52,364 bases of DNA from Coriobacteriales bacterium (GTDB lineage Bacteria > Actinomycetota > Coriobacteriia > Coriobacteriales > UBA8131). The stretch's first letter is position 1, and each line of letters starts with the position of its first letter. Shown piece after piece: positions 21,685 through 47,689 of the stretch. The notes beneath the pieces were generated by a model. That model saw only the letters and a program-made list of their open reading frames with translations, did no database searches and was not told the origin of the DNA. The stretch spans positions 1 to 52,364 of the forward strand of contig JAITOC010000101.1 in NCBI GenBank assembly GCA_031290175.1, read 5' to 3'. The translations under genes were made by a program, and so were the position numbers.

Positions 21685-23898
21685 TCAAAGGAGATTGTTA
21701 AAGCATCCACCCACAGATTCTATATCGATTATCCCAACATTCACCAACAACATCAAAAGAAAAACCTGAACAACGAGAATCAGGAACACAATGAGTATGA
21801 ATCCAATCCTGCTGATCGGTCGATCTGCGATCACGGCATCATCCTCATCAAGCAGCTCTGAGTCATCAATATCAAGTGAGACATCAACGGTAAGATCCTT
21901 GTCGCTGGGATCAGAGGGTTCTGGGGGTTGTAACTCGGCGCGCGTCTCATGGATGAAGCCTGGCTCAAGGGCAACCTCCTTAATAGTATCATGTCCAAAA
22001 TAGAAATCTGATGCAGGCTCAAGAGACAACGCGGGGTCTGAGCCGACCTCGAACCCGGGCTGAGCAGAGGCAGATGCTTCGTATAGAGGCTCCGTGTATT
22101 CACCTGCCGCTACAGACCCCTGCATATCGGATGTCCGTGATATCTCGGGCGTCTGCTGCAGAATGGTCGGCTCTGGTGTGTATGTTGGTGATGGTGTATA
22201 CACCTGCTCGATTGAAGGAACCACATCCACAGCCTGGGAAAAGGCATGCTCATAAGCCGGCTCGACGGTGGTGAGGGGCAGGTATACCGACGCCTCCAGA
22301 GCGGCCGCCTGATCCGCGCTCTCAAGCTCGGGTACCAAGGGCGCAATCTGCGCAAGAAAGTCATCGATCTCGTGCGTGCGCTCAAAAATCGGTGTTATTG
22401 TCGCTGGCTGCGGAACATCTATCGTCTGCGGCTCTGCGAAAGCCGAGGACTCGCGGGATTCCTCCGACCCCGTCGTGTAGACTTGGGGAAGAACGGGATC
22501 CTCAAGTATCGGCTCAACAGCATCATAAAGCTGCTCGACAACCGGCGTGACCTCGATCTCAACACTATCCACGGGCACATCGATTGTTACATGTTCATGG
22601 ACAACAGTCGCAGATGGCTCAAAGTCCGGTATCACATCAGGAACCATGAGAGGCTCGAGGAAGGCCTCCCCTCCCTCTTCACCCGATGGTGATGGCAGAG
22701 CCTCATATTCCGGAGACACAGCGGATTTGGACGACGGTTCGATTTCCGACTCAAAATCGGGAGCATACACGGGCCACGGAACCTGGAGGGGAGCCGGAAT
22801 GGTCGGCGGGGAAGGCTCAGGGCTGAATGCATGCGTGGCCTCAAGCGAAGGTTCGATGATCGGCGCAAGTTCGAGATCAAGCTCGAGCTCGGGCACGAGC
22901 CCGGACGCGGCGGTAGTCGCGACGGGAGGCTCGGCGATAGTCGCTCTTGGGGGCTCGATAACAGCCTGATCGTCTGGCTTGAAGTCCAGATCAAGCTCTT
23001 GGATGATGGTTACAGCCGAATCCGGCTCATCAGGGAATAAGCCGAAAAGACTCGAAAGCTGTTCTTCTGGTTCGATCTCGGGCACGGGCTCGATCTCGGG
23101 CACGGGTTCGATCTCGGGCACGATCTCGGGCGCAAGCGCAGGCGCGGGTGCAAATGTCTTTGCCCTAGGTTCGGGCACCTTCGGTGCCGGGGGTACCCTT
23201 AAGCCTGGTGCGGGCTCGACAGGAGCGGGCTCGAATACGACGGGCTCAAACACTGGTTCAAACACTGACTCGGACTCAGGCTCTGGTTCAGGTTCAAGCA
23301 CTGGCTTAGGTTCAAACACTGGTTCGACCTCAGGCTCAAGCACTGGCTCAGGCACTGGTTCAGGTTCAAACACTGGCTCGGACTCTACCTTGAGTAGCTC
23401 GCGCATCGATACAGGCGACACCGGCGGTGGAGCAATGGAGGGTTCCGGCCTGTCTCCAAAGATGGGGTCAAGCGATGAAACCAGCCCCGCAGCTAGAAAG
23501 GGGTCGAACTCAGGCTCTGGCTCGGGTTCGGGCATGACAGAGCGGAACGAGAGATCAAAGGGCAACTCTTGCTCAGAATCTGGAACGTCCTGGGGGGTTG
23601 TCTTTGGAACAGGGATTTCTGGTGCAAGAGAAATCCGCTCACTACCAAGAAACTCAGCAAGCAGCTCTCGTTTCAGTTCTTCCTTGAGCTCAGTCTTTAT
23701 CTCTTGTTTTACAGAGCTCGAAGTCACCAAGACAGAAGGAGCAACACCGAGGTCAGGGGTGACATCGGATACCAGAGATGCTATTTTGACCGCGATGACA
23801 TCCTCGGCTCCTGCAAAGGAGCCGAGAGAGAAAGCCTCTAAGCCAAAGAGCCCCGAATCGAGGCTCTCGTCCGCATGATCGTTCTGATCGACGCCCAT
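21685..23898 (-). CDS. very acidic Pro/Glu/Val-rich repeat protein with a C-terminal transmembrane anchor (hypothetical)
   Basis: 737 aa uninterrupted ORF starting 32 nt downstream of the bactofilin gene. EPVFEP / PEIEPV repeats. The single hydrophobic helix sits at the extreme C-terminus (IGFILIVFLILVVQVFLLMLLVNVGII). Confidence 0.65.
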   Translation of the reverse strand: MGVDQNDHADESLDSGLFGLEAFSLGSFAGAEDVIAVKIASLVSDVTPDLGVAPSVLVTSSSVKQEIKTELKEELKRELLAEFLGSERISLAPEIPVPKTTPQDVPDSEQELPFDLSFRSVMPEPEPEPEFDPFLAAGLVSSLDPIFGDRPEPSIAPPPVSPVSMRELLKVESEPVFEPEPVPEPVLEPEVEPVFEPKPVLEPEPEPESESVFEPVFEPVVFEPAPVEPAPGLRVPPAPKVPEPRAKTFAPAPALAPEIVPEIEPVPEIEPVPEIEPEEQLSSLFGLFPDEPDSAVTIIQELDLDFKPDDQAVIEPPRATIAEPPVATTAASGLVPELELDLELAPIIEPSLEATHAFSPEPSPPTIPAPLQVPWPVYAPDFESEIEPSSKSAVSPEYEALPSPSGEEGGEAFLEPLMVPDVIPDFEPSATVVHEHVTIDVPVDSVEIEVTPVVEQLYDAVEPILEDPVLPQVYTTGSEESRESSAFAEPQTIDVPQPATITPIFERTHEIDDFLAQIAPLVPELESADQAAALEASVYLPLTTVEPAYEHAFSQAVDVVPSIEQVYTPSPTYTPEPTILQQTPEISRTSDMQGSVAAGEYTEPLYEASASAQPGFEVGSDPALSLEPASDFYFGHDTIKEVALEPGFIHETRAELQPPEPSDPSDKDLTVDVSLDIDDSELLDEDDAVIADRPISRIGFILIVFLILVVQVFLLMLLVNVGIIDIESVGGCFNNLL
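23059..23541. repeat. in-frame short tandem/low-complexity repeats (PEPE, EPVFEP, PEIEPV x3) inside the 737-aa CDS
   Basis: The repeated DNA units are visible (e.g. CGGGCACGGG(C/T)TCGATCT x3 near 23085-23130) and correspond to aa about 120-280. Confidence 0.7.
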
Positions 23899-23930: not shown

Positions 23931-25907
23931 TTATAGGACCTCTTCAAACGGCGCTTCCAGATTCCCTTCCACGAGGGTTCTGACATTACCGTTAAGGACA
24001 GCTCCTGGCTCCACTGCAAGCGAAGCGGCAGAAACATCACCGAGGCAATAGGAGTGACTTCTCAGCACTACAACATTCTCCGCATTGATGCTTCCCTTGA
24101 CCTTACCATCGAAGATGATATTTTTGGTTGAAATATTGCCACCAACAACTGACCCATCATTAACGATTACGCCAGCAGCCGCAGCAAGGTTACCCTTGAC
24201 TCGACAGGTGTATAAGCCGATTTTCTCGCCACCCACATCTCCATGCACAACACCGTGTATGGCAACATCACCCTTTGCTTCGATATTACCACGGACACGA
24301 CCAACGATGTCTATATGACCATCGGTGATGATGTTGCCAAGCACCGTGGCCTCGCGAGTGATAATGGAAACGCCCTTCTCAACCGGCTCTTCCTCTATGA
24401 CCTCAGCTTCGGTGGAATCCTCATCGGGCTCCGCACTGAGCTCACTTGCGGGAACCGCCAGGGAGGTTACATCATCATAGGGGAGCTCGGCTGCAGATTC
24501 GGGCGCTACAGCGGACACAGGAGCGGGCTCGACTGACACCGGTGCATCGGGGGCAGGAGCAGGCGACACGGGTAGGGGCACTACGACATCCTCGACCTCA
24601 GGTGTGGACTCAAGTGCGACAGGAACATCCGTGTCTTCAGGAGCGGCCTCATCAGCCACTGCTTCCTGTATTTCAGCAACTTCAGGAGCAACCTCATCAA
24701 GCGCAACCTCTAGTGTTTCAGCAACTTCAGGAGCGGCCTCTTCAGCCACTGCTTCCTGTATTTCAGCAATCTCAGGAGCAGCCTCTTCAAACGCAACCTC
24801 AGCCTGAGCTTCAACAACCTCAGGAGCGACCTCTTCAGCCACTGCTTCCTGCGTTTCAGCAACTTCAGGAGCGGCCTCATCAAGCGCAACTTCAGCCTGA
24901 GCTTCAACAGCCTCAGAAGCAGCCTCTTCAGCCACTGCTTCCTGTATTTCAGCAATCTCAGGAGCAGCCTCTTCAAACGCAACCTCAGCCTGAGCTTCTA
25001 TTTCAATGGGCGGTGCAATAGCGGGGGCATCAACAGCAATAGCCTCTGCTGGAGTTTCAGCGAAGATTTCTGCAACGAAAGTTTCCCCCTCAACAGGAGC
25101 CTCTTGTGCTGCTGCATCGATTCCTTCTTCGATTTCTGCAACCGGGGCGGGAACATCCGCTTCCTCGAAAACCGCTACGGGCTCTACCGGCTCCACGACT
25201 TCCAGAACGTCCAGTGTCTCCAGGGGTTCTACAGGCTCGTCTACCTCTGCCTCTTCATCTACCTCCCTGAATGCCTCTACAGGGATGGTCTCCTCAAAGG
25301 CCTCTACAGGCTCTGCAGATGCGTACTCGTCTGCCTCCCTGAATGCCTCCGCAGGGATGCTCTCCTCAAAGGCCTCTGCGGGCTCAACGACCTCAAAGGT
25401 CTCTACGGGCGCGTACTCGTCTGCCTCCCTGAAAGCTTCTGTGGGTACACTCTCCTCAAAAGCCTCTACGACCTCTACAGGTGCATACTCATCTGCTTCC
25501 CTGAATGCCTCTGTAACTTCCAGAGGTGCATCTGCTTCCACGAAAATTTTTGCTCCCTGAGCAAGCTCCTCGGCGATGGTTCCATCAACTTCTGGAAATG
25601 TCTCGACCTTGACGGACACAAACCTCACGGTTGAATCGGCATCGAAAGGCAGGGCTTCTTCTGCTTCCCCATAGAGCGAAGCGGGGATTGCGTCGGGGAT
25701 ATCAGCACTGAAGGCTGTGGATTCTTCTTCCGCGCCCGCAAAGAGCGAGGCAGGGATTGCGTCGGGGATAACGGGAACGGGCGAATCGACATAGGCCGAA
25801 GTCGCTTGGGGTACGTCGGGCGGAACAGGAAACGTCCCCGGCGTCTCTGGAACCGGCTCGAATGCCGAATCACTAGGAAATATATTCACATTGTTATCCT
25901 CTGCCAC
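23931..25907 (-). CDS. bactofilin-domain cytoskeletal protein with an approximately 500-aa acidic repeat N-terminal extension
   Basis: The C-terminal about 125 aa match the bactofilin/DUF583 beta-helix pattern (VLGNIITDGHIDIVGRVRGNIEAKGDVAIHGVVHGDV..., ...GNLAAAAGVIVNDGSVVGGNIS..., GKVKGSINAENVVVL...GDVSAASLAVEPGAVLNGNV). GTG start with AGAGGTG upstream. Confidence 0.8.
   Translation of the reverse strand: MAEDNNVNIFPSDSAFEPVPETPGTFPVPPDVPQATSAYVDSPVPVIPDAIPASLFAGAEEESTAFSADIPDAIPASLYGEAEEALPFDADSTVRFVSVKVETFPEVDGTIAEELAQGAKIFVEADAPLEVTEAFREADEYAPVEVVEAFEESVPTEAFREADEYAPVETFEVVEPAEAFEESIPAEAFREADEYASAEPVEAFEETIPVEAFREVDEEAEVDEPVEPLETLDVLEVVEPVEPVAVFEEADVPAPVAEIEEGIDAAAQEAPVEGETFVAEIFAETPAEAIAVDAPAIAPPIEIEAQAEVAFEEAAPEIAEIQEAVAEEAASEAVEAQAEVALDEAAPEVAETQEAVAEEVAPEVVEAQAEVAFEEAAPEIAEIQEAVAEEAAPEVAETLEVALDEVAPEVAEIQEAVADEAAPEDTDVPVALESTPEVEDVVVPLPVSPAPAPDAPVSVEPAPVSAVAPESAAELPYDDVTSLAVPASELSAEPDEDSTEAEVIEEEPVEKGVSIITREATVLGNIITDGHIDIVGRVRGNIEAKGDVAIHGVVHGDVGGEKIGLYTCRVKGNLAAAAGVIVNDGSVVGGNISTKNIIFDGKVKGSINAENVVVLRSHSYCLGDVSAASLAVEPGAVLNGNVRTLVEGNLEAPFEEVL
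24636..24995. repeat. about 4 tandem copies of a 93-bp (31-aa) unit AQAEVAFEEAAPEIAEIQEAVAEEAA(S/P)E(A/V)VE inside the bactofilin CDS
   Basis: Near-identical 93-bp units can be read directly in the sequence; they are in frame and cover aa about 305-424. Confidence 0.8.
25242..25511. repeat. about 4 degenerate tandem copies of an EAFREADEYAPVE...EAFEE(S/T)(V/I)P.E unit inside the bactofilin CDS
   Basis: The protein-level repeat covers aa about 133-222, and the underlying DNA is visibly reiterated. Confidence 0.7.
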
Positions 25908-34747: not shown

Positions 34748-36448
34748 TCATAACGGTTGTTGACCGCGACCACCGGTGGGTGGGGTGCCACCGCCGAAGC
34801 CACCTTGAGGGGGCGTGCCGCCAAAGTCGCCATCGGTTGGCATATCGCCGCTGGGTGCCGTACCGCCGCCGGGGGCAGCGCCGCCGCCGGGCATGGTGCC
34901 ACCACGACCGCCTCCCATGCCACCAAAGCCCTCGCCGCCTGCATAGGCATTTACGGTGCCGTCGGCTGCCACACTGGCAGGGCTTTCGCTCAGCGTGAAG
35001 CTGGTGACATCCACGCCGTCCACAGAGAAGGTGTAACTTCCCCCGAGTGTAAGTTCAGGAGCGCTGAGCGCCACGGAGCTGAACTGTTTTTTTGCCGTCA
35101 GAGAGAACAACTCATTGCCGTTGGCATCACGCAGGCTGAGTACGCTGCCAGCTGCGAAGGTTTGCTGCGCATTGTAGAGCAACGCTGCCTGTGTCGAACC
35201 GCTGCCGTAGCCCTCGTCCATGCCCGCTGCGCAAAGTGCGATGAGGCTGCCACCGCTGATGCTCGCCCCCTGCCCTGAGTCGATGGCTCCGTTCCCGGAG
35301 CGCGTGGGGCCAAAGACCACGACTTCACCGCCGCTTTGCGTGATGATACCGTTGGAGTCGATACCGTCACCCTCGGCATCTATTTCCAGATAGCCACCGG
35401 TGATGTCAAGCAGGTAGTCAGTGCGTGCGTCACCTGCTGCGTTGACACCATCGTCGCTGGCGGTAATGTAATGCGAGCCGCCCTGAATCCATATCTGCGC
35501 ACCCTCATAGCCTTCCTCGCAGCGACTGACCGTGACATCGCCTCCTGCCGCACGCAGGATAGTCTCAGCATGCACGGCGTCATCTGTGGCTGCGATGGTA
35601 ATGGTGCCACCGTCAAGGGAGACAAAGCCGGCGGTATCGGGCTCAGTGGCATTGTTCGAGACAATGGCGTCGTCTCCGGATACGATGTCGAGCGTGCCGT
35701 CGGCTATCTTGACGCAATCCTTACCCTGTAGTCCGTCGCCTGCTGCCTCGATGCTGTATTCGCCACCCGTTATCACGAGGTCATCCTTGGATACGATGGC
35801 ATGCGTGGAGGCCGCCGTGACTTTCAGGCTACCCGAACCGTTGATTGTCAGGTCATCATGGGAGAAGATCACACCATCGTGGGTGGCGTGATCGTCCTCT
35901 GTTTCGGTTGTCTCCGCGTCCCCTGCCGCCAGGGTGGCAAGGTCGCTGCGGCCGCTGCCGTCGCTCAGCACGTTGCTGGAGCCCTCCGCCAGCGTGATGA
36001 ATACCTTGTCGGCCTGCTCCACAAGGATGGCGGGTGCAGCGGTAGAGGTAATCTCCACACCGTCGAGCACGAGTTGTACCTTGGCATCCTCATCGAGCGC
36101 CTCAACGACAATCGAGCCGTTGCTGAGTTTGCCGCTGACGATGTAGGTGCCCTCTGCAGAGATGGTGACGATACTGCCATCCACCTGGGCACCTTCGCCT
36201 TCCACGTTGACAGACGTGCCGGAAAGTGTGATTCGCGTCGCAGTAGCCTCATCATAGGAGGGGTCAAGGTCGCGGTCGGAGTACGAGAAGTCAAAGCCGC
36301 TCTCATCCGCCGGCTCCACTGTCACAGGAGTGGTCGCGGATGTATCCGGGCTGCCAACGGCAGGCTCCTCTCCCGCCTGTTTTGAACAGCCGAAGCTGAA
36401 GACAATCAGAGCACCTGTCAGGAGCAGGGTAATGAATCTTTTCATCAT
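34748..36448 (-). CDS. Cthe_2159-like carbohydrate-binding beta-helix lipoprotein with a Gly-rich C-terminal tail
   Basis: Lipobox MMKRFITLLLTGALIVFSFGC. Family-typical block FSYSDRDLDPSYDEATATRITLSG...VTISAEGTYIVSGKLSNGSIVVEA..DAKVQLVLDGVEITS..APAILVEQADKVFITLAEGS.N.LSDG. The C-terminus is GGMGGGRGGTMPGGGAAPGGG... Confidence 0.8.
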   Translation of the reverse strand: MMKRFITLLLTGALIVFSFGCSKQAGEEPAVGSPDTSATTPVTVEPADESGFDFSYSDRDLDPSYDEATATRITLSGTSVNVEGEGAQVDGSIVTISAEGTYIVSGKLSNGSIVVEALDEDAKVQLVLDGVEITSTAAPAILVEQADKVFITLAEGSSNVLSDGSGRSDLATLAAGDAETTETEDDHATHDGVIFSHDDLTINGSGSLKVTAASTHAIVSKDDLVITGGEYSIEAAGDGLQGKDCVKIADGTLDIVSGDDAIVSNNATEPDTAGFVSLDGGTITIAATDDAVHAETILRAAGGDVTVSRCEEGYEGAQIWIQGGSHYITASDDGVNAAGDARTDYLLDITGGYLEIDAEGDGIDSNGIITQSGGEVVVFGPTRSGNGAIDSGQGASISGGSLIALCAAGMDEGYGSGSTQAALLYNAQQTFAAGSVLSLRDANGNELFSLTAKKQFSSVALSAPELTLGGSYTFSVDGVDVTSFTLSESPASVAADGTVNAYAGGEGFGGMGGGRGGTMPGGGAAPGGGTAPSGDMPTDGDFGGTPPQGGFGGGTPPTGGRGQQPL

Positions 36449-36457
36449 GCTTCTTCC

Positions 36458-37153
36458 TTACAGCTCGTAGCTGCCGGTAGTTGGGCGTCCAAGAGCGATC
36501 TCAAGGTTGCCGTTACGGGTACGAAGCTCGTCGATGAACGCCTTTTGCTCAACGCCGTGCTTGAGGCTGACTGTGTAGGTGAGTTTGTAGAGGCTGCCCA
36601 TGTTGACAGTCTTGACCCGTGTGAGCTCATGCTTGTGGGTATAGTGCTCAAACACGGGAGTAAAGATGTCCTCGTAATCGAGAGTCTCGGGAATGGTGAC
36701 CTTGAGCTGGTGTTCACCCTGCTGCGGCTCACCAAAGGGCACGACCTGGTAGAGGGCGGTTACCGCTCCAATGACGAGGGTGAATATCACGGCAATGGCA
36801 AGGAAGCCCATACCCGTCGCAAGCCCGATAGCCATCGAGAAGAACACGGCAGCAATGTCTTTGGCGCTGCCCGGTATGGACCGGAACCGCACGAGTGCAA
36901 AGGCACCCATCACCGCCAACCCTGCGCCGAGATTGCCGTTTACCAGCATAATCACGAGTTGTACCACCGCGGGCAGCAACGCAAGGGTAACAACAAAGCC
37001 CTTGTTGTGGCTATTGCGGAACATATAGATAAGCGCTGCTGCCAATCCCAGCACGAGCGACACCGCCGTGCAGAGCAAAAAATCCGTGACTGGCAGCTCG
37101 GTGATCCCTTGTGCCGAGGTGAGTACACTACTGAAGATCTCGTCCGTGGTCAT
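36458..37153 (-). CDS. DUF4956 domain-containing membrane protein
   Basis: Typical core VVTLALLPAVVQLVIMLVNGNLGAGLAVMGAFALVRFRSIPGSAKDIAAVFFSMAIGLATGMG. ATGA overlap with the upstream VTC gene. Confidence 0.8.
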   Translation of the reverse strand: MTTDEIFSSVLTSAQGITELPVTDFLLCTAVSLVLGLAAALIYMFRNSHNKGFVVTLALLPAVVQLVIMLVNGNLGAGLAVMGAFALVRFRSIPGSAKDIAAVFFSMAIGLATGMGFLAIAVIFTLVIGAVTALYQVVPFGEPQQGEHQLKVTIPETLDYEDIFTPVFEHYTHKHELTRVKTVNMGSLYKLTYTVSLKHGVEQKAFIDELRTRNGNLEIALGRPTTGSYEL

Positions 37154-38052
37154 GTGGTCCCCTCCTCGTTGGTGATGAATTGCCTGTATGCCGTGCCTAT
37201 CTTCGAGAAGCTGCGGGGGAAGACCCCCGCTTCAGCGAGCGTACGGGTGAGCTCGAGTGGCAGTGCGTTGGATGCCTTGATCTCCATAACGCCAGTATCC
37301 GCAGGTAAAAGAGGGCATGTTTCCTTGCCCTCCCACCACTCCCACGAGCCGGGGGCAAAGCCGATCCTGCGGTCGAACGTGATGCGGAGTGGGCTTGCCC
37401 CATCTGACGACACATACTCGTAGGCCTGACGCTCATAGGTCAAAAGCAGCAGAGGCTCCAGACCGCCATACAGAAAACGCGCCTGCTCCAACTCGCGCAT
37501 TATCTGGCGGTTGAATACAGCCTTCTGAGTATCGGCATCGCGATAGAGCGACAGGGGCAAGACGCCCTGCTCGATGAACTGCCGCGCTTCACGCAGGCTC
37601 ATACCCACACGTCGCTTGTAGACTATGCCGAGGAACTTCTTCTTGATTTCGAGGAACGCCTTGTGTGTGCCCATATGTACGGAGCCGTAGGTACGCACAC
37701 GTAGCTTCTCCTTGTAGTCCGGCTTCTCGATAGAACGTCTGATAAGCACGTGCTCGGGAGTGTCAAGATAGAGGCTGCTGACGAGCGCAGAGCCTCTGTC
37801 GTCGGGAATCAGGGCAGATCCGAGACCGGCGATGAGGCGCTTGCCTGTGTCCTCATCGAGCAGGTATTTCTCCTCCTGGCGTGCAAAAACATTGGGAGAA
37901 TGTTGTTCAGATGCGCTGAGCGCAGGGTTGCTGTCCGTTGCGTGCTCCCGACGTGCTAATTCATCGCGGGATTCGGGGGGCTCGTACAGCATGACGGGCT
38001 TACTCTGTGTAAAGACCCGGGGAGGTGCGGATAGGGCTGAAGCAGTTTGCAT
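37150..38052 (-). CDS. VTC-domain (polyphosphate polymerase-like, triphosphate-tunnel fold) protein
   Basis: Pattern RQEEKYLL......L...L......D......V.SLYLDTPE......S.EKP.YKEKLRVRTYG....FLEIKKKF.G.VYKRR. The ATG at 38052 follows AAAGGAG; the track start at 38088 has no RBS. Confidence 0.8.
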   Translation of the reverse strand: MQTASALSAPPRVFTQSKPVMLYEPPESRDELARREHATDSNPALSASEQHSPNVFARQEEKYLLDEDTGKRLIAGLGSALIPDDRGSALVSSLYLDTPEHVLIRRSIEKPDYKEKLRVRTYGSVHMGTHKAFLEIKKKFLGIVYKRRVGMSLREARQFIEQGVLPLSLYRDADTQKAVFNRQIMRELEQARFLYGGLEPLLLLTYERQAYEYVSSDGASPLRITFDRRIGFAPGSWEWWEGKETCPLLPADTGVMEIKASNALPLELTRTLAEAGVFPRSFSKIGTAYRQFITNEEGTT

Positions 38053-38115
38053 GGATACTCCTTTGGTTCTTCCGGTGCTTGACTCCATCGGCAGATTTCA
38101 GTCTAGCGAAACACC

Positions 38116-38176
38116 CTGAAAACAGCCTGAAAGCAAAACCTTGACATAAAGCGGCAGGTTTTCAGCATACTTTCAG
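38116..38176. promoter_or_regulatory. candidate response-regulator operator: two inverted pairs of 11-bp-spaced CTGAAA(A/G) repeats
   Basis: CTGAAAAC (38116-38123) and CTGAAAGC (38127-38134) on the plus strand. GTTTTCAG (38158-38165) and ACTTTCAG (38169-38176) are the same motif on the minus strand. They flank a TTGACA hexamer (38141-38146) in the divergent intergenic region. Confidence 0.4.
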
Positions 38177-38278
38177 TGAGATTGCCTACAATGTACGCGT
38201 GGCAGCTTGCCATACGACGAGATAAACTGGATTTGAAGATCAAGCCCGGGGATGAGGATAACGCATGAAGGACGTGGT

Positions 38279-38992
38279 ATGAACATCCTGCTCGTGGAGG
38301 ATCAACAACGGCTGGCGCAGGCACTTGCCGCCATCCTTGAGGACGCACGCTACCATGTTGACGTGGTGGGCGATGGCGTGAGCGCAGTGGAGTATGCGCT
38401 CAGCGCGAACGAAGCGGGCAGCCCGTACGACGCCCTCGTGCTTGATGTGATGCTGCCGCGAATGGACGGCTTTGAGGCGATGCGCCAGATACGCGCTGGT
38501 GGCAGCAGCACTCCTGTTATCATGCTGACCGCCCGCGACACCCTGCATGACAAGGTGACCGGCCTGGATGCCGGTGCCGACGACTATCTTACCAAGCCCT
38601 TCCAGCCCCAGGAGTTGCTTGCCCGCCTGCGCGCCCTCACCCGCCGGAGCGGCAACGTGCATGTGGAAGACATCGTGCTCGCCGATACTCGCCTCAATCT
38701 CACAAACGGCGATTTAAGCCTCGTGGGAGCCGAGGGCACCGTCCACCTCACGCAACGAGAGTTCGAGGTCTGCACCTACTTCATGACCAATCCTGAACAG
38801 GTTATCACCAAAGCCCAGCTGCTTATGCGCGTCTGGGGCATGGACAACGACGCCGACAAGAACAGTGTTGAAGCCTACGTGTCCTTCCTGCGCAAGAAGC
38901 TCGGGTATCTCGGCAGCAGCCTGCGCGTGGTCACCGTGCGCGGCATGGGCTACCGCCTGGAGACTTCAGAACTTGAGGCGTCGGATGCTTAA
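38279..38992 (+). CDS. OmpR/PhoB-family response regulator
   Basis: MNILLVEDQ, a receiver Asp in LVLDVMLPRMDG, KP, and a winged-helix C-terminus (VEAYVSFLRKKL...VRGMGYRL). RBS GAAGGA. Confidence 0.9.
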   Translation: MNILLVEDQQRLAQALAAILEDARYHVDVVGDGVSAVEYALSANEAGSPYDALVLDVMLPRMDGFEAMRQIRAGGSSTPVIMLTARDTLHDKVTGLDAGADDYLTKPFQPQELLARLRALTRRSGNVHVEDIVLADTRLNLTNGDLSLVGAEGTVHLTQREFEVCTYFMTNPEQVITKAQLLMRVWGMDNDADKNSVEAYVSFLRKKLGYLGSSLRVVTVRGMGYRLETSELEASDA

Positions 38993-40358
38993 GGAACTAC
39001 GACAACGTTTCATTGTCATCATGATGGGACTCGTGGGAGCGGTTCTGCTCGTCATGCTCACCGTGAGTGTGGTGAGCAGCTATCGGACGGAAGTTACAAG
39101 CATCGAGGATGCTTTGAGCGCGGAGGTAACGCGTGAACCGAGCGATCCGGGGCACCCCTGGATTGGTGGACGACCCGGCGCACAGATGGGCACCTCGGGT
39201 CTTGGAGACAGGGGCGATCCGCTCACCCTCGGCAACCGCACAGGAGAGATGTTCACCCCCGTCTATCTCGTCACCATCGACCGCAGCAGCGGGAGCGTGC
39301 TCGCTCGGAGCGAATTCGTGAATATGGATGAGACCTTGCTCGCGCAGACGTTCGAGCGCATCGAGGCACTCGGTCCACTTGCTGATGGCACCACGCGCCA
39401 TGGGCGCTTCGGCGACCTCAAACTTTTCTACCACATCGAGATTACCGGCACCGCCAACAACGGAACCGTCATCATCGCGCTGGCGGACGCCTCACCCCTC
39501 AACGAGAGAACCATGCGCTCCGTCATCACGGCACTCGCCATCTGGCTAGGTGCGATGGTCGCGCTGTTTTTCGTAAGCCTTCTGCTCTCCCGCATCGCCC
39601 TGCGCCCGGTGGCTCAAGCGTGGGAGAACCAACGCCGCTTTGTCGCCGACGCCTCACACGAGCTGAAGACGCCTTTGACCGTGATTCTCGCAAACAGCAG
39701 CCTGCTCGCAGCCCACCCCGAAAAGACAGTCGCGGAGCAGACACAGTGGCTGGAGAGCACCCAGGTGGAGGCGCAACGCATGGACGGTCTCGTGCACGAC
39801 CTCCTGTTGCTCGCGCAGACTGATGATGAAGAACCGGCGCTGGCTTATGGCGGGGCGAGCGGGGCGGCGGATGAGCGCGCGGTTGACCTCAGCGCACTCG
39901 TGAACCGTAACGTGCTCCAGTTTGAGGCGGTGTTCTTTGAGCGCGCCATCACCTTGGTGAGTACGGTTGCCCCGGGCGTGCAGATACGTGGCAACGAGCC
40001 CCAACTCGACCGCCTGCTCCAGATACTTCTCGACAACGCCAGCAAGTATGCTGACAAGCCCGACGCGCCCGACGCCGACGCCGACGCCACGGCTCCTCTC
40101 GTGACGGTGACGCTTGCCAAAGCTGCGTCAGGCAAACAGCAGACGGTGCTCTGTGTCCACAGCACGGGCAAGCCCATCGCACCTGAAGCACTCCCCCGCC
40201 TCTTCGATCGCTTCTACCGTGGAGACAGCTCGCACAACGATACCGAGGGTTATGGGCTGGGCTTGAGCCTTGCGAAGAACATCGTGGCTGCGCATGGTGG
40301 CAGCATCGAGGTCACGAGCGCCCTGGAGCAGGGCACCACGTTCACGGTACGACTGTAG
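38985..40358 (+). CDS. sensor histidine kinase (two TM helices, HisKA + HATPase_c)
   Basis: The ATG at 38985 overlaps the regulator stop. H-box FVADASHELKTPLT; N and G boxes (LLDNASKYA, GYGLGLSLAKNIV..HGG). Confidence 0.9.
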   Translation: MLKELRQRFIVIMMGLVGAVLLVMLTVSVVSSYRTEVTSIEDALSAEVTREPSDPGHPWIGGRPGAQMGTSGLGDRGDPLTLGNRTGEMFTPVYLVTIDRSSGSVLARSEFVNMDETLLAQTFERIEALGPLADGTTRHGRFGDLKLFYHIEITGTANNGTVIIALADASPLNERTMRSVITALAIWLGAMVALFFVSLLLSRIALRPVAQAWENQRRFVADASHELKTPLTVILANSSLLAAHPEKTVAEQTQWLESTQVEAQRMDGLVHDLLLLAQTDDEEPALAYGGASGAADERAVDLSALVNRNVLQFEAVFFERAITLVSTVAPGVQIRGNEPQLDRLLQILLDNASKYADKPDAPDADADATAPLVTVTLAKAASGKQQTVLCVHSTGKPIAPEALPRLFDRFYRGDSSHNDTEGYGLGLSLAKNIVAAHGGSIEVTSALEQGTTFTVRL

Positions 40359-40365
40359 CGCGGAT

Positions 40366-42435
40366 CTACCTGCCTCCGCGCGAGAGATTCTGCTGGAGTT
40401 TCTCCAGAACCACGTCGTAGTTGATAGGTTTTCCAACGTGGTCGTTCATGCCGGCGGCGAGACAGGACTCTATGTCCTCCCTGAACACATTGGCAGTCAT
40501 TGCGATAATAGGGATTGTCTGCGCCTTCTTGGTGCCGAGCGCACGGATGCGGCGTGTAGCCTCAAGCCCATCCATCTCAGGCATCTGCATATCCATAAGA
40601 ATAGCGTCAAAGCGGTCGGGCTCCGTCATAAAGAGGTCGAGAGCCTGTGCCCCATTCTCAGCACTCACAAGGGTGATGCCCGTTGGCTCCAACAAGGCGA
40701 TGACGATGTCGCGATTGATATCCACATCGTCAACAAGCAGAACGGTCTTGCTGCTGAAGTCAACCGCAGGGTCTTCTTCTGGCGCAGCAGAGGCGCAAGA
40801 GGCGTCGTCTGAAGTCTGGCAAACGTTTTTAAGGCGCACAATACATCCAAAAACCGACCCTTTACCTGGCTCGCTCTCAAGCCAGATGCTACCGCCCATC
40901 ATCTCGACGATGCGCTTGCTGATGGCAAGGCCAAGACCGGTGCCACCATAGGTTCGAGAGGTGGAACTCTCCGCCTGCTGGAATGACTTGAACAGCAGTT
41001 TCTGCTGTTCGGGGGTGATGCCTATGCCATTGTCGATCACCTGTATCTCAAGCGTGCTGCTTGTGTCATCCTGAGAGAGAAGCTTCGCAGCCAACGTGAT
41101 TGAGCCATTCTCGGGTGTAAACTTAACCGCATTGGAGAGCAGGTTAGCGATTACCTGCGAGAGGCGCTGGTCATCGCCGATAAAACGCTCTGGTATCGTG
41201 TCGTCCAACCTGAATGCGAGCTGCTGATTCTTCTCGACTGCTTTAAGTCGTATGACACTGTGGACCCGATTGAGCATCTCTTTGAAATCGAACTCCAGAT
41301 AGGAGAGCTCAAGCTTGTTGGCTTCGATCTTTGACATATCGAGCACATCATTGATCACGCCCAGCAAATGGGTAGAAGCATCGCTGATAACATCGAGAGC
41401 CTCGTCTTTATGCGCGAGATCCTGCCCCCGCTTGCCGATGGTCGTCATTCCGATAATGGCGTTCATGGGAGTGCGCATTTCATGGCTCATATTTGAGAGG
41501 AACTCGCTCTTTGCCTGGGTGGCGGCCTCAGCCTCGAGCTTTGCCTTCATCACCGCTGTAATATCAGTGATGTCGATGTAGGCTCCTCCCGCGCTGCCAA
41601 CGAGCTTGTCCGAGGTAATCTTGAACCAACGCATCTGGCCATCAATGAGCATCTCTCGGGTATCCTCGAAATACCCCTTACTTGAGAGCGCGTCAATGAT
41701 CAAGCGCTTTGTGTTGATGTCGCGGAACAGGTCGACGATGGGGCGGCCTATCACGATTGACTGCTCTTCAAAGTTGGCCAGCTTCATGAGAGGTTCGCTC
41801 ACGTAGGTCACGCGCATGTTCTCGTCCATGAGCGCTGTTATGTTAGGGGTCGCTTCAAAAAGCTTGGCAAAAGCCGCCTCGGCACTGGCCGCTTGACGGT
41901 TGCGGTTGAAGGCAAAGCGGGTGAGCTGGTAGGTCAGTATACTGAGGATGCCTGTCTGTATCCAACAAACCGCAGTCTCGGTCAGGATGAAGGGCACCTC
42001 AAGTCTGCTGGGGAACATCGTGAGCTGGTATCCCATAACCACCAGCACAAAGGTAACCGCGTGGGTCATCACAATGAAAATGATTAGCTTGCGCGTGTTA
42101 CAGTACAGAGCAGCCAGACACACCAATACCATGAGTGACGTAAAATAGTAGGAATAGTCCGAGATGTAGACGCTGTTCACGGTCAAGCCGACATAGAGCA
42201 CGCTGGGCATAAGGAAGGCGTTATTCTCGCTGTGTACAAAGACGAGGAATACGATAAGAAGAATCACCACGACGCCACCGTCAATGAGGATGAAGCTCAA
42301 GTGATCGGAGGGAATCTGCTTGGCAATCCCTTCAAAGAAGCGAACCACGATAAAACCGATACTGATAACAAAGGCAAAGATGTTCGCGATGCGAAAATAG
42401 CGATTCTGCGTCTTATGAACAGTCCTTTCGGTCAT
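40366..42435 (-). CDS. hybrid sensor histidine kinase / response regulator (polytopic N-terminus, PAS, HisKA, HATPase_c, REC)
   Basis: SEFLSNMSHEMRTPMNAIIG H-box, GGTGLGLAISKRIVEMMGG, and a C-terminal receiver VLLVDDVDINR...ILMDMQMPEMDG...K. Confidence 0.9.
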   Translation of the reverse strand: MTERTVHKTQNRYFRIANIFAFVISIGFIVVRFFEGIAKQIPSDHLSFILIDGGVVVILLIVFLVFVHSENNAFLMPSVLYVGLTVNSVYISDYSYYFTSLMVLVCLAALYCNTRKLIIFIVMTHAVTFVLVVMGYQLTMFPSRLEVPFILTETAVCWIQTGILSILTYQLTRFAFNRNRQAASAEAAFAKLFEATPNITALMDENMRVTYVSEPLMKLANFEEQSIVIGRPIVDLFRDINTKRLIIDALSSKGYFEDTREMLIDGQMRWFKITSDKLVGSAGGAYIDITDITAVMKAKLEAEAATQAKSEFLSNMSHEMRTPMNAIIGMTTIGKRGQDLAHKDEALDVISDASTHLLGVINDVLDMSKIEANKLELSYLEFDFKEMLNRVHSVIRLKAVEKNQQLAFRLDDTIPERFIGDDQRLSQVIANLLSNAVKFTPENGSITLAAKLLSQDDTSSTLEIQVIDNGIGITPEQQKLLFKSFQQAESSTSRTYGGTGLGLAISKRIVEMMGGSIWLESEPGKGSVFGCIVRLKNVCQTSDDASCASAAPEEDPAVDFSSKTVLLVDDVDINRDIVIALLEPTGITLVSAENGAQALDLFMTEPDRFDAILMDMQMPEMDGLEATRRIRALGTKKAQTIPIIAMTANVFREDIESCLAAGMNDHVGKPINYDVVLEKLQQNLSRGGR

Positions 42436-43523
42436 GAGCGCGGAACCCCTCTCTTGAAATCAACGCCATCGGGCGTGACGAACTGGATGGCGTGCGGGAC
42501 AACCTCAAACGTGACCTCTGTGTCAGAGAAAGTCTCACCGTCAATGACAACGAGGAGATGGCGATTGGATTTTATCTCGACCTTTTTTACCTTGCGGTAG
42601 ATGAAATGCTTGGTGTCCTCATAGGCCTTGCCCTTTATATACGAGGGAATGAGCGAGAGATCCGCGAGCAAGCCGGACTCACGCAGGAAGAGGAAGTCCA
42701 TAAGCGTGTCGTCGGGCACCGCCCGGTAGTTCGGAGCCTTGTCGCCCGCATAGCAGGGGCCATTTGCAAGATTAATACTGCCGTTTCCTTTGATGACCTC
42801 GTTGTCGTCAAGGATTATCTCGTAATACTGATTGCACACGCGTCTGTTGAACATCACGAGCACGGAGCTGATACTGTAGTACAGGCTCGTCAAAAGAGGA
42901 GACACCCGCAGGCCCTCTCCAGACCATTGTGCCATGTTGGTGTAGTTGTGATACACCTGTGACTCTATCCCTATCGCCGCAAAATTAAGGAGAGCATACC
43001 TGTCCTTGCAGGTAAAGATATCCGTGGGGATAGTTGGCGCGATTGCTTGTTTGGCGATGTTCTTGAACAGGGGCTCCATCCCCTCTCCAAAAGCCCGCAC
43101 AAAATCATTGGAACCACCATGGGGTATGGCTGCAAGCTCAGCATTAGGCACACCAACCATCCCATTCAGACAGTCGAAAAGGATGCCATCCCCTCCCACC
43201 GCATAGATGCGCACGATAACCGTACTGGGAACTCCCTCAAGGTAGTGTCGAATAACACCTATTGCCTCGCGTGGATAGGCGGATACATGGATGGTATACG
43301 TCTCGCCCAGACCTTCAAGGTCGCGCGTGATCTCGGCGCGTATCTGATCAAGTTCGCGCGGCAAAGGGAATGAACGAGGATTGACGATGAAGAGGTGGTG
43401 TCGCCCTTCCTTCTTTGACAGAGCAGGTGTGCTGCTCTCAGCGGTAGTGCCCGTGACCATCGCGCTGCCATCCCTTTGCCTTCGTGTGCCGCACTGTTGA
43501 GCCATCGCGGCAGCCTGTCTCAT
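42432..43523 (-). CDS. diacylglycerol/lipid kinase family protein (YegS/BmrU-like)
   Basis: HHLFIVNPRS ... IYAVGGDGILFDCLNGM ... IPHGGSNDF pattern. The stop overlaps the hybrid kinase ATG (ATGA). The start is uncertain (ATGs at 43523, 43505 and 43460; only the last has a purine-rich upstream stretch). Confidence 0.8.
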   Translation of the reverse strand: MRQAAAMAQQCGTRRQRDGSAMVTGTTAESSTPALSKKEGRHHLFIVNPRSFPLPRELDQIRAEITRDLEGLGETYTIHVSAYPREAIGVIRHYLEGVPSTVIVRIYAVGGDGILFDCLNGMVGVPNAELAAIPHGGSNDFVRAFGEGMEPLFKNIAKQAIAPTIPTDIFTCKDRYALLNFAAIGIESQVYHNYTNMAQWSGEGLRVSPLLTSLYYSISSVLVMFNRRVCNQYYEIILDDNEVIKGNGSINLANGPCYAGDKAPNYRAVPDDTLMDFLFLRESGLLADLSLIPSYIKGKAYEDTKHFIYRKVKKVEIKSNRHLLVVIDGETFSDTEVTFEVVPHAIQFVTPDGVDFKRGVPRS

Positions 43524-46159: not shown

Positions 46160-47689
46160 ATGGCGAACGACCAACCAAAACGACGCTCTATCAAGAGTTC
46201 AGGAGAAAAGGATGACTCCAGTCTTGACTCCTTCCTTGCTGAGCACAACCTTCTCCCCAACAAAGGAGCCCCCAAGCAGTCGTCTTTCTTCCCCTCTGAT
46301 TCACCGACTGAGAAGGCAGAGAGGGCCGAGAAAGCCAAAGAGGACGAGCAGTCGCCCTTTGACCCCAACGCAACCGTATCCTACGAATCCCTTGGTGAAG
46401 AGAAGCCTGAGTTTCCCTTCGCAGATGAGAGCGTTGCAGAATCGCCCACGGACAAACCAAAGACCGACAAAGCGGTGGACGCTGTGAGTAAGACCCCTGC
46501 CCGCTCGACAGCCCAGCGAAAGTCTCAACGTGAGAAGAAATTAGTCAAAACTGATTCTCCACAAAAAGCAGAACAAAACCCCGAACAAATCCAGGCACGA
46601 TCCTCTAAGCCAAGCGCTCAGTTATCCTCCGATCTCTCCTCGGGAAGCTCTTCTAAGCGCCCCGCTAAGTCGAGTTCGAAATCACGCTCGTCCACGGGGG
46701 CTTCTGGCGCTTCGCAAAAACAGGCTCCCAAGGAGCCTTCGAGGGCGCCTAAGCGAGAGTTGCTCCCCGAGGCAAACCCTGAATCCTATCACCAGACACT
46801 GATGCACGAGAGCGGTTACCGCATTCGTGGTGGAGGCGGCGGGAGACTCTCGAGTAGCCCCATTATCACCATCATCGCGACGGTTATCGCCCTCGCGGCC
46901 GTTGTGATCATAGCCTGGTTTGGCTTTGGGGCTGCCAAGGATTTTGTCACCGGCAAACCTCCTGAGCAGATTATCCTCGTGACAAGTGCCGAAACGCGCA
47001 CGGCTCTTGACTCTGAGCTTCCCTTGCTCCCCGCTGCCCTCTGGCAGGATCCTGACGACTATTACAATAGCTGCATCGAAGCCGGTTGGAATATCGTGCT
47101 TGTCGATCGCAAAACCGCAAAGAACCCTGACCCAACAGCCCTCGGCAAAGAGATCGTGCACCTGAAGGCAGGCGTGAGCCAAGATATACTCAAGGGCTAT
47201 TACGAAAGCGAATTTAACACCTATGACTTCGATGAGATGCAGGAATACTTCGTTGGTTCATGGATGCTTGACCTTCAGACCGGGAACAGTGGTAGGTTCT
47301 GCGAGGTCAAGTATGTCAACCTCGCAGCCGATGGGGTGCTTCCCGAGATGGAGCACCTACTCGCGATCCAGGGTCTGACGTTTCAGGGCTTGCCCGATAC
47401 AAATGCAGAGAACTATAAGGTGTATGTGAACGGCACTGATGACCATGGGAACACCGTCATGCGCGGCAGCTTCACCAATGGGGACGTCACCTATTACTGG
47501 GAGACGATTGGCTGCCCCTTTGAGGACTATTACGGCGGCAAAGACAAAAGGACATTGCCCGATACGGCAGTTTTTGTCAGACTTCGCGTGGCTACCTTCG
47601 ACTTCTACGGAGTGCCCGCCACATCCGACTACGCCGGAGAACTCCCCACTTCAGAGGATCCCGAGACCGACGCCACTCCTGAAGAGTAG
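46160..47689 (+). CDS. type-II membrane protein with a long disordered Ser/Lys-rich cytoplasmic N-terminus (hypothetical)
   Basis: RBS GGGAGGA. About 230 aa of low complexity, one TM helix (IITIIATVIALAAVVIIAWFGF), then an approximately 250-aa external domain. No family was recognised. Confidence 0.65.
   Translation: MANDQPKRRSIKSSGEKDDSSLDSFLAEHNLLPNKGAPKQSSFFPSDSPTEKAERAEKAKEDEQSPFDPNATVSYESLGEEKPEFPFADESVAESPTDKPKTDKAVDAVSKTPARSTAQRKSQREKKLVKTDSPQKAEQNPEQIQARSSKPSAQLSSDLSSGSSSKRPAKSSSKSRSSTGASGASQKQAPKEPSRAPKRELLPEANPESYHQTLMHESGYRIRGGGGGRLSSSPIITIIATVIALAAVVIIAWFGFGAAKDFVTGKPPEQIILVTSAETRTALDSELPLLPAALWQDPDDYYNSCIEAGWNIVLVDRKTAKNPDPTALGKEIVHLKAGVSQDILKGYYESEFNTYDFDEMQEYFVGSWMLDLQTGNSGRFCEVKYVNLAADGVLPEMEHLLAIQGLTFQGLPDTNAENYKVYVNGTDDHGNTVMRGSFTNGDVTYYWETIGCPFEDYYGGKDKRTLPDTAVFVRLRVATFDFYGVPATSDYAGELPTSEDPETDATPEE

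Follow-up and report, generated by a model that had tools for sequence, protein, structure and literature searches.

A widespread bacterial gene cassette pairs a Vtc4-like tunnel enzyme with a DUF4956 membrane protein and may serve membrane-coupled polyphosphate synthesis

The VTC domain (PF09359), the catalytic domain of the polyphosphate polymerase that transfers its product from the yeast cytosol to the vacuole lumen, is also encoded in bacterial genomes, which raises the question of what it does there and with which partners it works. This question was addressed for a locus of a Coriobacteriales bacterium (assembly GCA_031290175.1, contig JAITOC010000101.1). The whole stretch of DNA that was analysed has a length of 52,364 nucleotides (nt) and is called the window in the following. 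It contains a cassette of three co-directional genes, which encode a VTC-domain protein, a polytopic membrane protein of the DUF4956 family and an acidic lipoprotein of the Cthe_2159 family, and of two divergently transcribed genes for a two-component system. The cassette is real, widespread, uncharacterised and self-contained. The preferred reading is that it serves a regulated, membrane-coupled synthesis of polyphosphate, with the product being handed to the outer face of the membrane, and the probability of this reading is put at roughly 0.4.

The three genes are very tightly packed. The stop codon of the VTC gene and the start codon of the DUF4956 gene overlap in an ATGA (ACATGACC), and the TAA stop codon of the latter is followed by 9 nt and then by the ATGATG of the lipoprotein gene. 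The Pfam domains were recognised with E-values of 1.2e-28 (VTC), 1.1e-16 (DUF4956) and 6.6e-70 (Cthe_2159), while none of the three products matched an NCBIfam model. Two starts were considered for the VTC gene, and the one at position 38052 was favoured; it is preceded at a distance of 6 nt by AAGGAG, and the resulting product of 300 amino acids (aa) matches the protein of the gene caller (P0001). It was verified that an initial annotation of the locus had given the gene coordinates, the ATGA overlap, the 9-nt gap, the lipobox, the Gly-rich tail of the lipoprotein and the 226-nt divergent region correctly.

As an approach to the conservation of the cassette, 80 genomic loci that encode the closest relatives of the VTC protein were collected, and their open reading frames (ORFs) were searched with the five proteins of the window. 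The DUF4956 gene directly followed the VTC gene in 78 of the 79 resolvable loci, and a Cthe_2159 lipoprotein gene came next in 52 of 75. The co-conservation of the three genes, on which the interpretation in the initial annotation hinged, was thus borne out. A chance arrangement can be excluded, because the same gene order occurs in dozens of unrelated genomes. A regulator-kinase pair adjoined the module in 37 loci, 20 times upstream and co-directional, 13 times divergent and four times downstream, and it was found more often with the three-gene form (31 of 48) than with the two-gene form (6 of 25; Fisher p = 0.0013). All-against-all clustering of the neighbouring ORFs yielded no family besides the five of the cassette that was present in more than 13 loci. 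The DUF4956 protein was the best conserved component, with a median identity to the window protein of 50%, compared to 39% for the VTC protein and 35% for the lipoprotein. A DUF4956 profile retrieved 5,320 representatives at 50% clustering, nearly all of them 220–230 aa long, and the number of clusters at 90% identity exceeded 6,000 for the VTC as well as for the DUF4956 protein. The pair is found mostly in Clostridia and Coriobacteriia of gut and rumen, and the nearest homologues of both window proteins are from Coriobacteriales genomes.

To which known enzyme is the bacterial VTC protein most similar? A search of the PDB with the single sequence returned nothing relevant, and a profile was needed: a profile of 32 homologues matched the Vtc4 tunnel domain with E = 1.5e-10. 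An AlphaFold2 (AF2) model had a mean predicted local distance difference test score (pLDDT) of 84.6, with the first ~55 residues being disordered. In a Foldseek search with this model the best matches were Vtc4 chains (3g3q; E = 4.8e-13, TM 0.61–0.64), Vtc3 and Vtc2 ranked next, and the CYTH enzymes reached E-values of 1e-5 to 1e-7. The residues that are important in Vtc4 have been described in a cryo-electron microscopy study: mutation of K200, R264, R266, K281, Y359, R361, S457 or K458 lowered polyphosphate, E426 binds Mn2+, and only K458 among these residues differs in the inactive Vtc2 and Vtc3 (10.1101/2023.01.27.525886). For a residue map, Vtc4 192-481 was rebuilt from alignments and then aligned to the bacterial family model. 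The counterparts in the window protein were K62 (K200), R118 (R264), R120 (R266), K137 (K281), Y206 (Y359), R208 (R361) and E257 (E426), with a conservation of at least 98% among 200 bacterial homologues for all of them but the Tyr (88%). Opposite the Vtc4 sequence PKFSKF (P454-K-F-S-K458) the window protein carries an FSK motif (F282-S283-K284, within PRSFSKI), which is invariant in the family alignment and was found in 187 of the 200 homologues. By motif and position it would correspond to S457 and K458; HMMER left this segment of Vtc4 unaligned, a profile restricted to the last 55 residues missed Vtc4, and a local pairwise alignment of the two C-termini scored no better than shuffled sequences (25 versus 18.9 ± 3.8). 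The initial annotation had made its interpretation dependent on the tunnel and catalytic residues of Vtc4, and they were indeed present and nearly invariant. Judged by its residues and its model, the bacterial enzyme looks Vtc4-like and catalytically competent.

The comparison was extended to the whole eukaryotic VTC complex (Vtc4 with Vtc1 and Vtc2 or Vtc3; PDB 3G3Q, 7YTJ, 8I6V). Both systems have the PF09359 domain with the same tunnel fold, and all residues that are known to be necessary for polyphosphate synthesis have their counterparts in the bacterial enzyme. In both, the tunnel domain is soluble and has a membrane component as its obligatory partner, and export to the bacterial exterior would be topologically equal to import into the vacuole lumen. 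In contrast, the bacterial protein has no SPX domain, as Pfam returned only the VTC domain and the N-terminal ~55 residues are disordered, and thus control by inositol pyrophosphates is not to be expected and regulation would be transcriptional via the two-component system. It also ends after the tunnel domain and has no fused C-terminal three-helix membrane domain (DUF202). The membrane partner is encoded separately, belongs to an unrelated family and has five helices and an ACT-like domain; a Glu (E60) takes the place of Vtc4 T198, and the cassette adds a third, extracytoplasmic lipoprotein.

The regulatory part of the cassette was analysed via its promoter region. The window contains 30 CTGAAA hexamers, five of which fall within 81 bp of the divergent control region, where they form two tandem pairs with 11-bp spacing, mutually inverted, and one single copy. 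The related loci comprise 1.33 Mb, and 43 matches to CTKAAA-N4-6-CTKAAA were found in them. As many as 28 matches were located between -350 and +60 of a VTC start, which is about 74 times the background density, and nine others were found ~2.1 kb upstream, that is before the regulator gene at loci with the order regulator-kinase-VTC. The spacer was exactly 5 nt long in 36 of the 43 cases, and an inverted pair of tandems was frequent across Clostridia and Coriobacteriia. The pattern was also present upstream of VTC in a few loci without an adjacent two-component system (L003, L027, L030, L034 and L058). As it is nearly confined to the promoters of the cassette, it ties the regulator to the operon, and the CTGAAA boxes are a candidate binding site of the response regulator. 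The claim of the initial annotation that the two-component system is dedicated to the three genes was strengthened by this result.

The layout of tandem hexamers recalls the binding of OmpR/PhoB-type regulators to direct repeats. The hexamers are located ~45–85 bp upstream of the start of the VTC ORF, a position that would suit a site close to the -35 region. The logic of a PhoB/OmpR "pho box", with a winged-helix regulator and tandem hexamers at 11-bp spacing, is thus found here as well; the differences are that the box of the cassette is CTKAAA and that two tandem pairs, inverted relative to each other, would serve two divergent promoters. The proteins have the features of an OmpR/PhoB-type system, namely a regulator with a receiver and a winged-helix domain, and a HisKA and HATPase_c kinase with two transmembrane segments, which were read from the translation and flank an extracytoplasmic domain of ~150 aa. 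No family match was obtained for the latter domain. The best NCBIfam matches of the regulator were RppA (224 versus a cut-off of 250), CopR/CusR-type and PhoB, and those of the kinase were RppB (149 versus 400), CopS-type and PhoR, all of them below the cut-offs. Regarding the gene starts given in Table 1, that of the regulator is likely on account of an upstream GAAGGA and of the receiver domain and NCBIfam models, which start at residues 10–12; the likely ATG of the kinase gene overlaps with the stop codon of the regulator gene.

Table 1. Genes and sequence elements of the cassette, with positions in the window
Feature	Position	Strand	Description
VTC gene	ORF 37150-38088, preferred gene 37150-38052	-	300 aa, cytosolic, Vtc4-like triphosphate-tunnel protein
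DUF4956 gene	36458-37153	-	231 aa, membrane subunit
Cthe_2159-family lipoprotein gene	34748-36448	-	566 aa, acidic, extracytoplasmic
Lipoprotein C-terminal tail	34751-34942	-	about the last 64 residues, Gly/Pro/Met-rich, low complexity (from the translation)
Divergent control region	38053-38278	no strand	226 nt between the VTC and response-regulator genes
Tandem box CTGAAA-N5-CTGAAA	38116-38132	+	11-bp periodicity, candidate regulator binding site
Second tandem box CTGAAA-N5-CTGAAA	38160-38176	-	inverted relative to the first box
Fifth, single CTGAAA hexamer	38096-38101	-	in the control region
OmpR/PhoB-type response regulator gene	ORF 38252-38992, likely start 38279	+	Pfam Response_reg and Trans_reg_C
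Sensor histidine kinase gene	ORF 38865-40358, likely ATG 38985	+	~457 aa, Pfam HisKA and HATPase_c

The AF2 model of the DUF4956 protein (pLDDT 75) contains five helices (residues 22-46, 51-71, 75-90, 97-114 and 118-137), which are followed by a beta-alpha-beta-beta-alpha-beta domain of the ferredoxin/ACT-like type (148-222). The family has invariant polar and basic residues, among them two invariant loops, FRNxxxK and RFRSxPGSAKD. According to the positive-inside rule, the N-terminus would be outside and the ACT-like domain inside; this topology places both loops on the cytoplasmic face, where they are a possible docking site for the tunnel enzyme. The VTC and DUF4956 proteins probably form a complex.

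The third protein carries a lipobox (FSFGC) with the Cys at residue 21, which is encoded at ~36386-36388, and has an isoelectric point (pI) of 4.05. When compared with the PDB entries 4peu and 4phb it matched 4peu_A with E = 4e-30 over residues 72-308. Most of the homologues in the related loci have a lipobox Cys near residue 20–25, a pI of ~4.0–4.9 and an Asp plus Glu content of 11–20%, and as the lipobox is found in nearly all of them, these homologues are extracytoplasmic. A tail rich in Gly, Met and Pro was recognised by eye in roughly 30 of 49 long homologues; in tails defined by a script Met was enriched 4.4-fold compared to the body of the protein, the segments over-extending into the beta-helix in several proteins. 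The tails are rich in Gly, Met, Pro and Gln and show motifs such as GGMGG, GMPGG and GGMHGGG. Tails rich in Gly and Met are reminiscent of the GGM tails of GroEL or of Met-rich metal-binding motifs. Cthe_2159 of Clostridium thermocellum (4PEU/4PHB), a beta-helix similar to polysaccharide lyases, belongs to the same Pfam family and is homologous over ~240 residues, but the window protein is twice as long, lipid-anchored and has the Gly-rich tail.

Taken together, a mechanism can be proposed. In response to a signal that the kinase would perceive, the phosphorylated OmpR-type regulator would bind between the divergent genes at the tandem boxes CTGAAA-N5-CTGAAA and turn on the VTC-DUF4956-lipoprotein operon as well as its own operon. 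The VTC enzyme would be made in fixed proportion with its polytopic partner, and on the cytoplasmic side of the membrane it would build polyphosphate from the gamma-phosphate of ATP. A DUF4956 oligomer, with the basic loops FRNxxxK and RFRSxPGSAKD as proposed contact to the enzyme, would receive the chain at the tunnel exit and move it to the outer face. This would equal the topology of the transfer from the yeast cytosol to the vacuole lumen, and the inside-negative membrane potential would favour it. At the outer face the acidic, anchored beta-helix lipoprotein would hold or organise the polyanion, probably via bridging divalent cations. A more general version, which is considered unlikely, is a synthase-dependent polyphosphate secretion of Gram-positive gut anaerobes, in which a Vtc4-like polymerase would thread the polymer through an MgtC-like DUF4956 oligomer, and a cation-loaded lipoprotein, replaced by CotH or DUF4832 proteins elsewhere, would retain it.

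Several observations weigh against membrane-coupled polyphosphate synthesis. On the side of the enzyme, E60 is invariant in the bacterial family at the position of Vtc4 T198, and the bacterial RxExK (R58-x-E60-x-K62) is thus half of the ExExK of CYTH enzymes, while Vtc4 has RxTxK. Among the triphosphate-tunnel enzymes there are not only polymerases but also triphosphatases, RNA triphosphatases and cyclases, and the direction of the reaction cannot be read from conserved phosphate-binding residues. On the side of the membrane protein, Foldseek gave no significant structural match for the membrane part of DUF4956. A DUF4956 channel of the Vtc1/DUF202 type was considered and rejected, as no match to the membrane chains of VTC was found with Foldseek. 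In its architecture DUF4956 resembles MgtC, a family for which channel activity is not known to have been demonstrated. The lipoprotein is strongly acidic and could therefore bind a polyanion only through cations. It is missing in 23 of the 75 loci, which have the two-gene core and in which unrelated housekeeping genes follow after DUF4956, and near the Cthe_2159-type loci that were examined neither VTC nor DUF4956 genes were present. Furthermore, the literature that was searched contained no biochemical or genetic work on bacterial VTC or DUF4956 proteins, as the initial annotation had already stated for the three-gene module. Its overall interpretation is partly supported: co-conservation, the Vtc4 residues and the dedicated two-component system speak for it, whereas the docking of the enzyme on a DUF4956 channel, which would be of another fold family than the yeast channel, the passing of the polymer to the lipoprotein and the independence of PPK are inferences.

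An alternative that is judged unlikely is that the polyphosphate stays inside the cell. DUF4956 would then be an MgtC-like anchor or regulator, the ACT-like domain of which would perceive a small molecule and would tether or gate the VTC enzyme. The co-regulated lipoprotein would have a separate surface role with cations or glycans, and the cassette would be a unit for phosphate, divalent-cation or envelope-stress homeostasis and not an exporter. The model of DUF4956 fits this idea insofar as MgtC/SapB/YhiD proteins (PF02308) have the same architecture, namely a small membrane domain with about five helices and, C-terminal to it, an ACT-like domain in the cytoplasm. Foldseek matches of the C-terminal domain were S6, ACT, NikR-C and the C-terminal domain of MgtC (2lqj), with E-values of ~0.006–0.03. 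In their membrane region 25 of 40 DUF4956 members matched the Pfam MgtC model weakly, and JGI labels the homologues YhiD. However, a kinship with MgtC could not be established at the sequence level. The best of these matches had E = 0.034, the score of the window protein itself was 9.2 bits (E = 2.1), with the gathering cut-off being 31.4 bits, and hhalign of the DUF4956 alignment with Escherichia coli YhiD gave a probability of 0.3. DUF4956 was thus rejected as a member of the MgtC family; the two are similar in architecture only, and MgtC proteins are not known to be paired with a tunnel enzyme. A homeostasis unit would be in accordance with the existence of the two-gene core and with the two-component system, which among named systems is nearest to those of the metal and phosphate type. 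Yet an unrelated role of the lipoprotein is hard to reconcile with a gene that follows at 9 nt in the same operon and is kept in 52 of 75 loci, and the very high conservation of the DUF4956 membrane helices suggests more than an anchor.

It is rather improbable that the VTC-DUF4956 pair supplies polyphosphate or phosphoryl groups at the outside as a donor or an anionic partner for a wall polymer or exopolysaccharide handled by the beta-helix protein, the role of which would be filled by secreted CotH kinases in other lineages. This idea is based on the genomic context of related genes. The genes cotH, "poly-phosphate polymerase", DUF4956 and DUF4832 were reported as accessory genes beside Gram-positive pel operons (Whitfield et al., 10.1101/768473), and the NELoc-2 locus of Clostridium perfringens has VTC, a "tubulin/FtsZ, GTPase" gene and CotH beside a glycosyltransferase gene (PMC2879425); both papers name the genes without explaining them. 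In the cassette described here the third gene encodes a Cthe_2159 lipoprotein and not CotH or DUF4832, no pel or exopolysaccharide genes are nearby, and a dedicated two-component system and a conserved operator are present. The pel loci and NELoc-2, the "tubulin/FtsZ, GTPase" gene of which is taken here to be DUF4956, share with the cassette the VTC and DUF4956 core, the occurrence in Gram-positive anaerobes and the location beside genes for extracytoplasmic proteins.

The type protein of the lipoprotein family leads to the same context. Binding of cellulose and polygalacturonate has been cited for Cthe_2159 (10.1101/401869), which applies to the type protein only. The genes for Cthe_2159 and its orthologues in relatives of Acetivibrio/C. 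thermocellum (L081, 5553-8870; L082; L083) are located directly after a large secreted CotH gene, in contrast to the window gene, which is located after VTC and DUF4956. The CotH protein before Cthe_2159 has ~800 aa with LTD, Fn3_assoc, CHB_HEX_C and CotH domains, and in Acetivibrio clariflavus such a CotH-Cthe_2159-type pair lies beside an exopolysaccharide cluster. To our knowledge, this context has not entered the interpretation of the binding data. Taken together, the CotH, pel and NELoc-2 contexts suggest that interchangeable extracytoplasmic partners are grouped around a VTC-DUF4956 core. A direct role in the making of an envelope polymer is, however, opposed by the loci of the cassette itself: neither the 80 loci nor the window contained a CotH gene at a distance of up to 10 kb from the module, and recurring glycosyltransferase or exopolysaccharide genes were absent from its neighbourhood in the 80 loci.

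Similarly improbable is a tunnel hydrolase or transferase, such as a tripolyphosphatase, a polyphosphatase or an enzyme for nucleotide or other organic triphosphates, with its product or phosphate release being coupled to the membrane protein: the eight-stranded tunnel with its basic lining is common to the CYTH hydrolases (E. coli YgiF, Sulfolobus acidocaldarius TTM, AtTTM3, thiamine triphosphatase) and class IV cyclases, the invariant E60 keeps the second Glu of ExExK, and slow catalysis has been described for isolated Vtc4 itself (PMC9911596). On the other hand, the ExExK motif is not present, since an invariant Arg takes the position of its first Glu as it does in Vtc4 (R196, R58 in the window protein), the scores of the CYTH enzymes were five to six orders weaker than those of Vtc4, sequence and structure are nearer to Vtc4, Vtc2 and Vtc3 than to any CYTH enzyme, and the Lys that distinguishes active Vtc4 from Vtc2 and Vtc3 would be retained in the FSK motif.

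In the literature that was searched bacterial VTC and DUF4956 genes were mentioned in gene lists or as differentially expressed transcripts or proteins only. Papers on polyphosphate continue to assign VTC to eukaryotes and PPK1 and PPK2 to prokaryotes; VTC4, for instance, has been tabulated as "Eukarya" (PMC13318637). In C. thermocellum the VTC-domain gene Clo1313_1989 acquired convergent mutations in ethanol-adapted lineages, with a weaker signal than the main hits (PMC10503014), which hints at an envelope- or stress-related role.

Some further observations concern the distribution of the module and its surroundings. Two candidates for natural VTC-DUF4956 fusions (P0425 and P0406) were truncated in both domains and were discarded as evidence; they are probably artefacts of assembly or gene calling. 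The module did not match any of the PADLOC models of anti-phage defence. A plasmid location is not typical, as only three weak matches were obtained, two of them on megabase-sized replicons. In the window the cassette is adjoined by genes on the minus strand (40366-43523) for a hybrid histidine kinase with HisKA, HATPase_c and receiver domains and, overlapping with it, a lipid kinase of the DAGK/YegS type, neither of which recurs beside the module in other loci. A protein of 658 aa with a C-terminal bactofilin domain (E = 8e-18) is encoded at 23931-25907 on the minus strand, and its gene contains an in-frame tandem repeat at 24637-24998 with a period of 45/93 nt and ~4–7 copies. The ORFs at 21685-23898 (minus strand, 737 aa) and 46160-47689 (plus strand, 509 aa) had no Pfam match at E <= 1e-5.

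The cassette thus combines a Vtc4-type enzyme with a membrane partner and a mode of regulation that both differ from those of the eukaryotic complex. With its three genes, its two-component system and its defined operator it is small, which makes the question of its function directly testable. If the pair makes and exports polyphosphate, a new route of biosynthesis and secretion would be defined, and a genetic handle on the surface-bound or released polyphosphate of gut commensals would become available. If secretion should be the general function in Gram-positive gut anaerobes, the polymer at the surface could buffer cations, serve as a polyanion of the matrix or donate phosphoryl groups outside the cytoplasm, and prokaryotes would have a route to polyphosphate besides the PPK families. 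It would also be the likely evolutionary source of the catalytic domain of eukaryotic VTC, and the origin of the eukaryotic VTC complex would be easier to trace.

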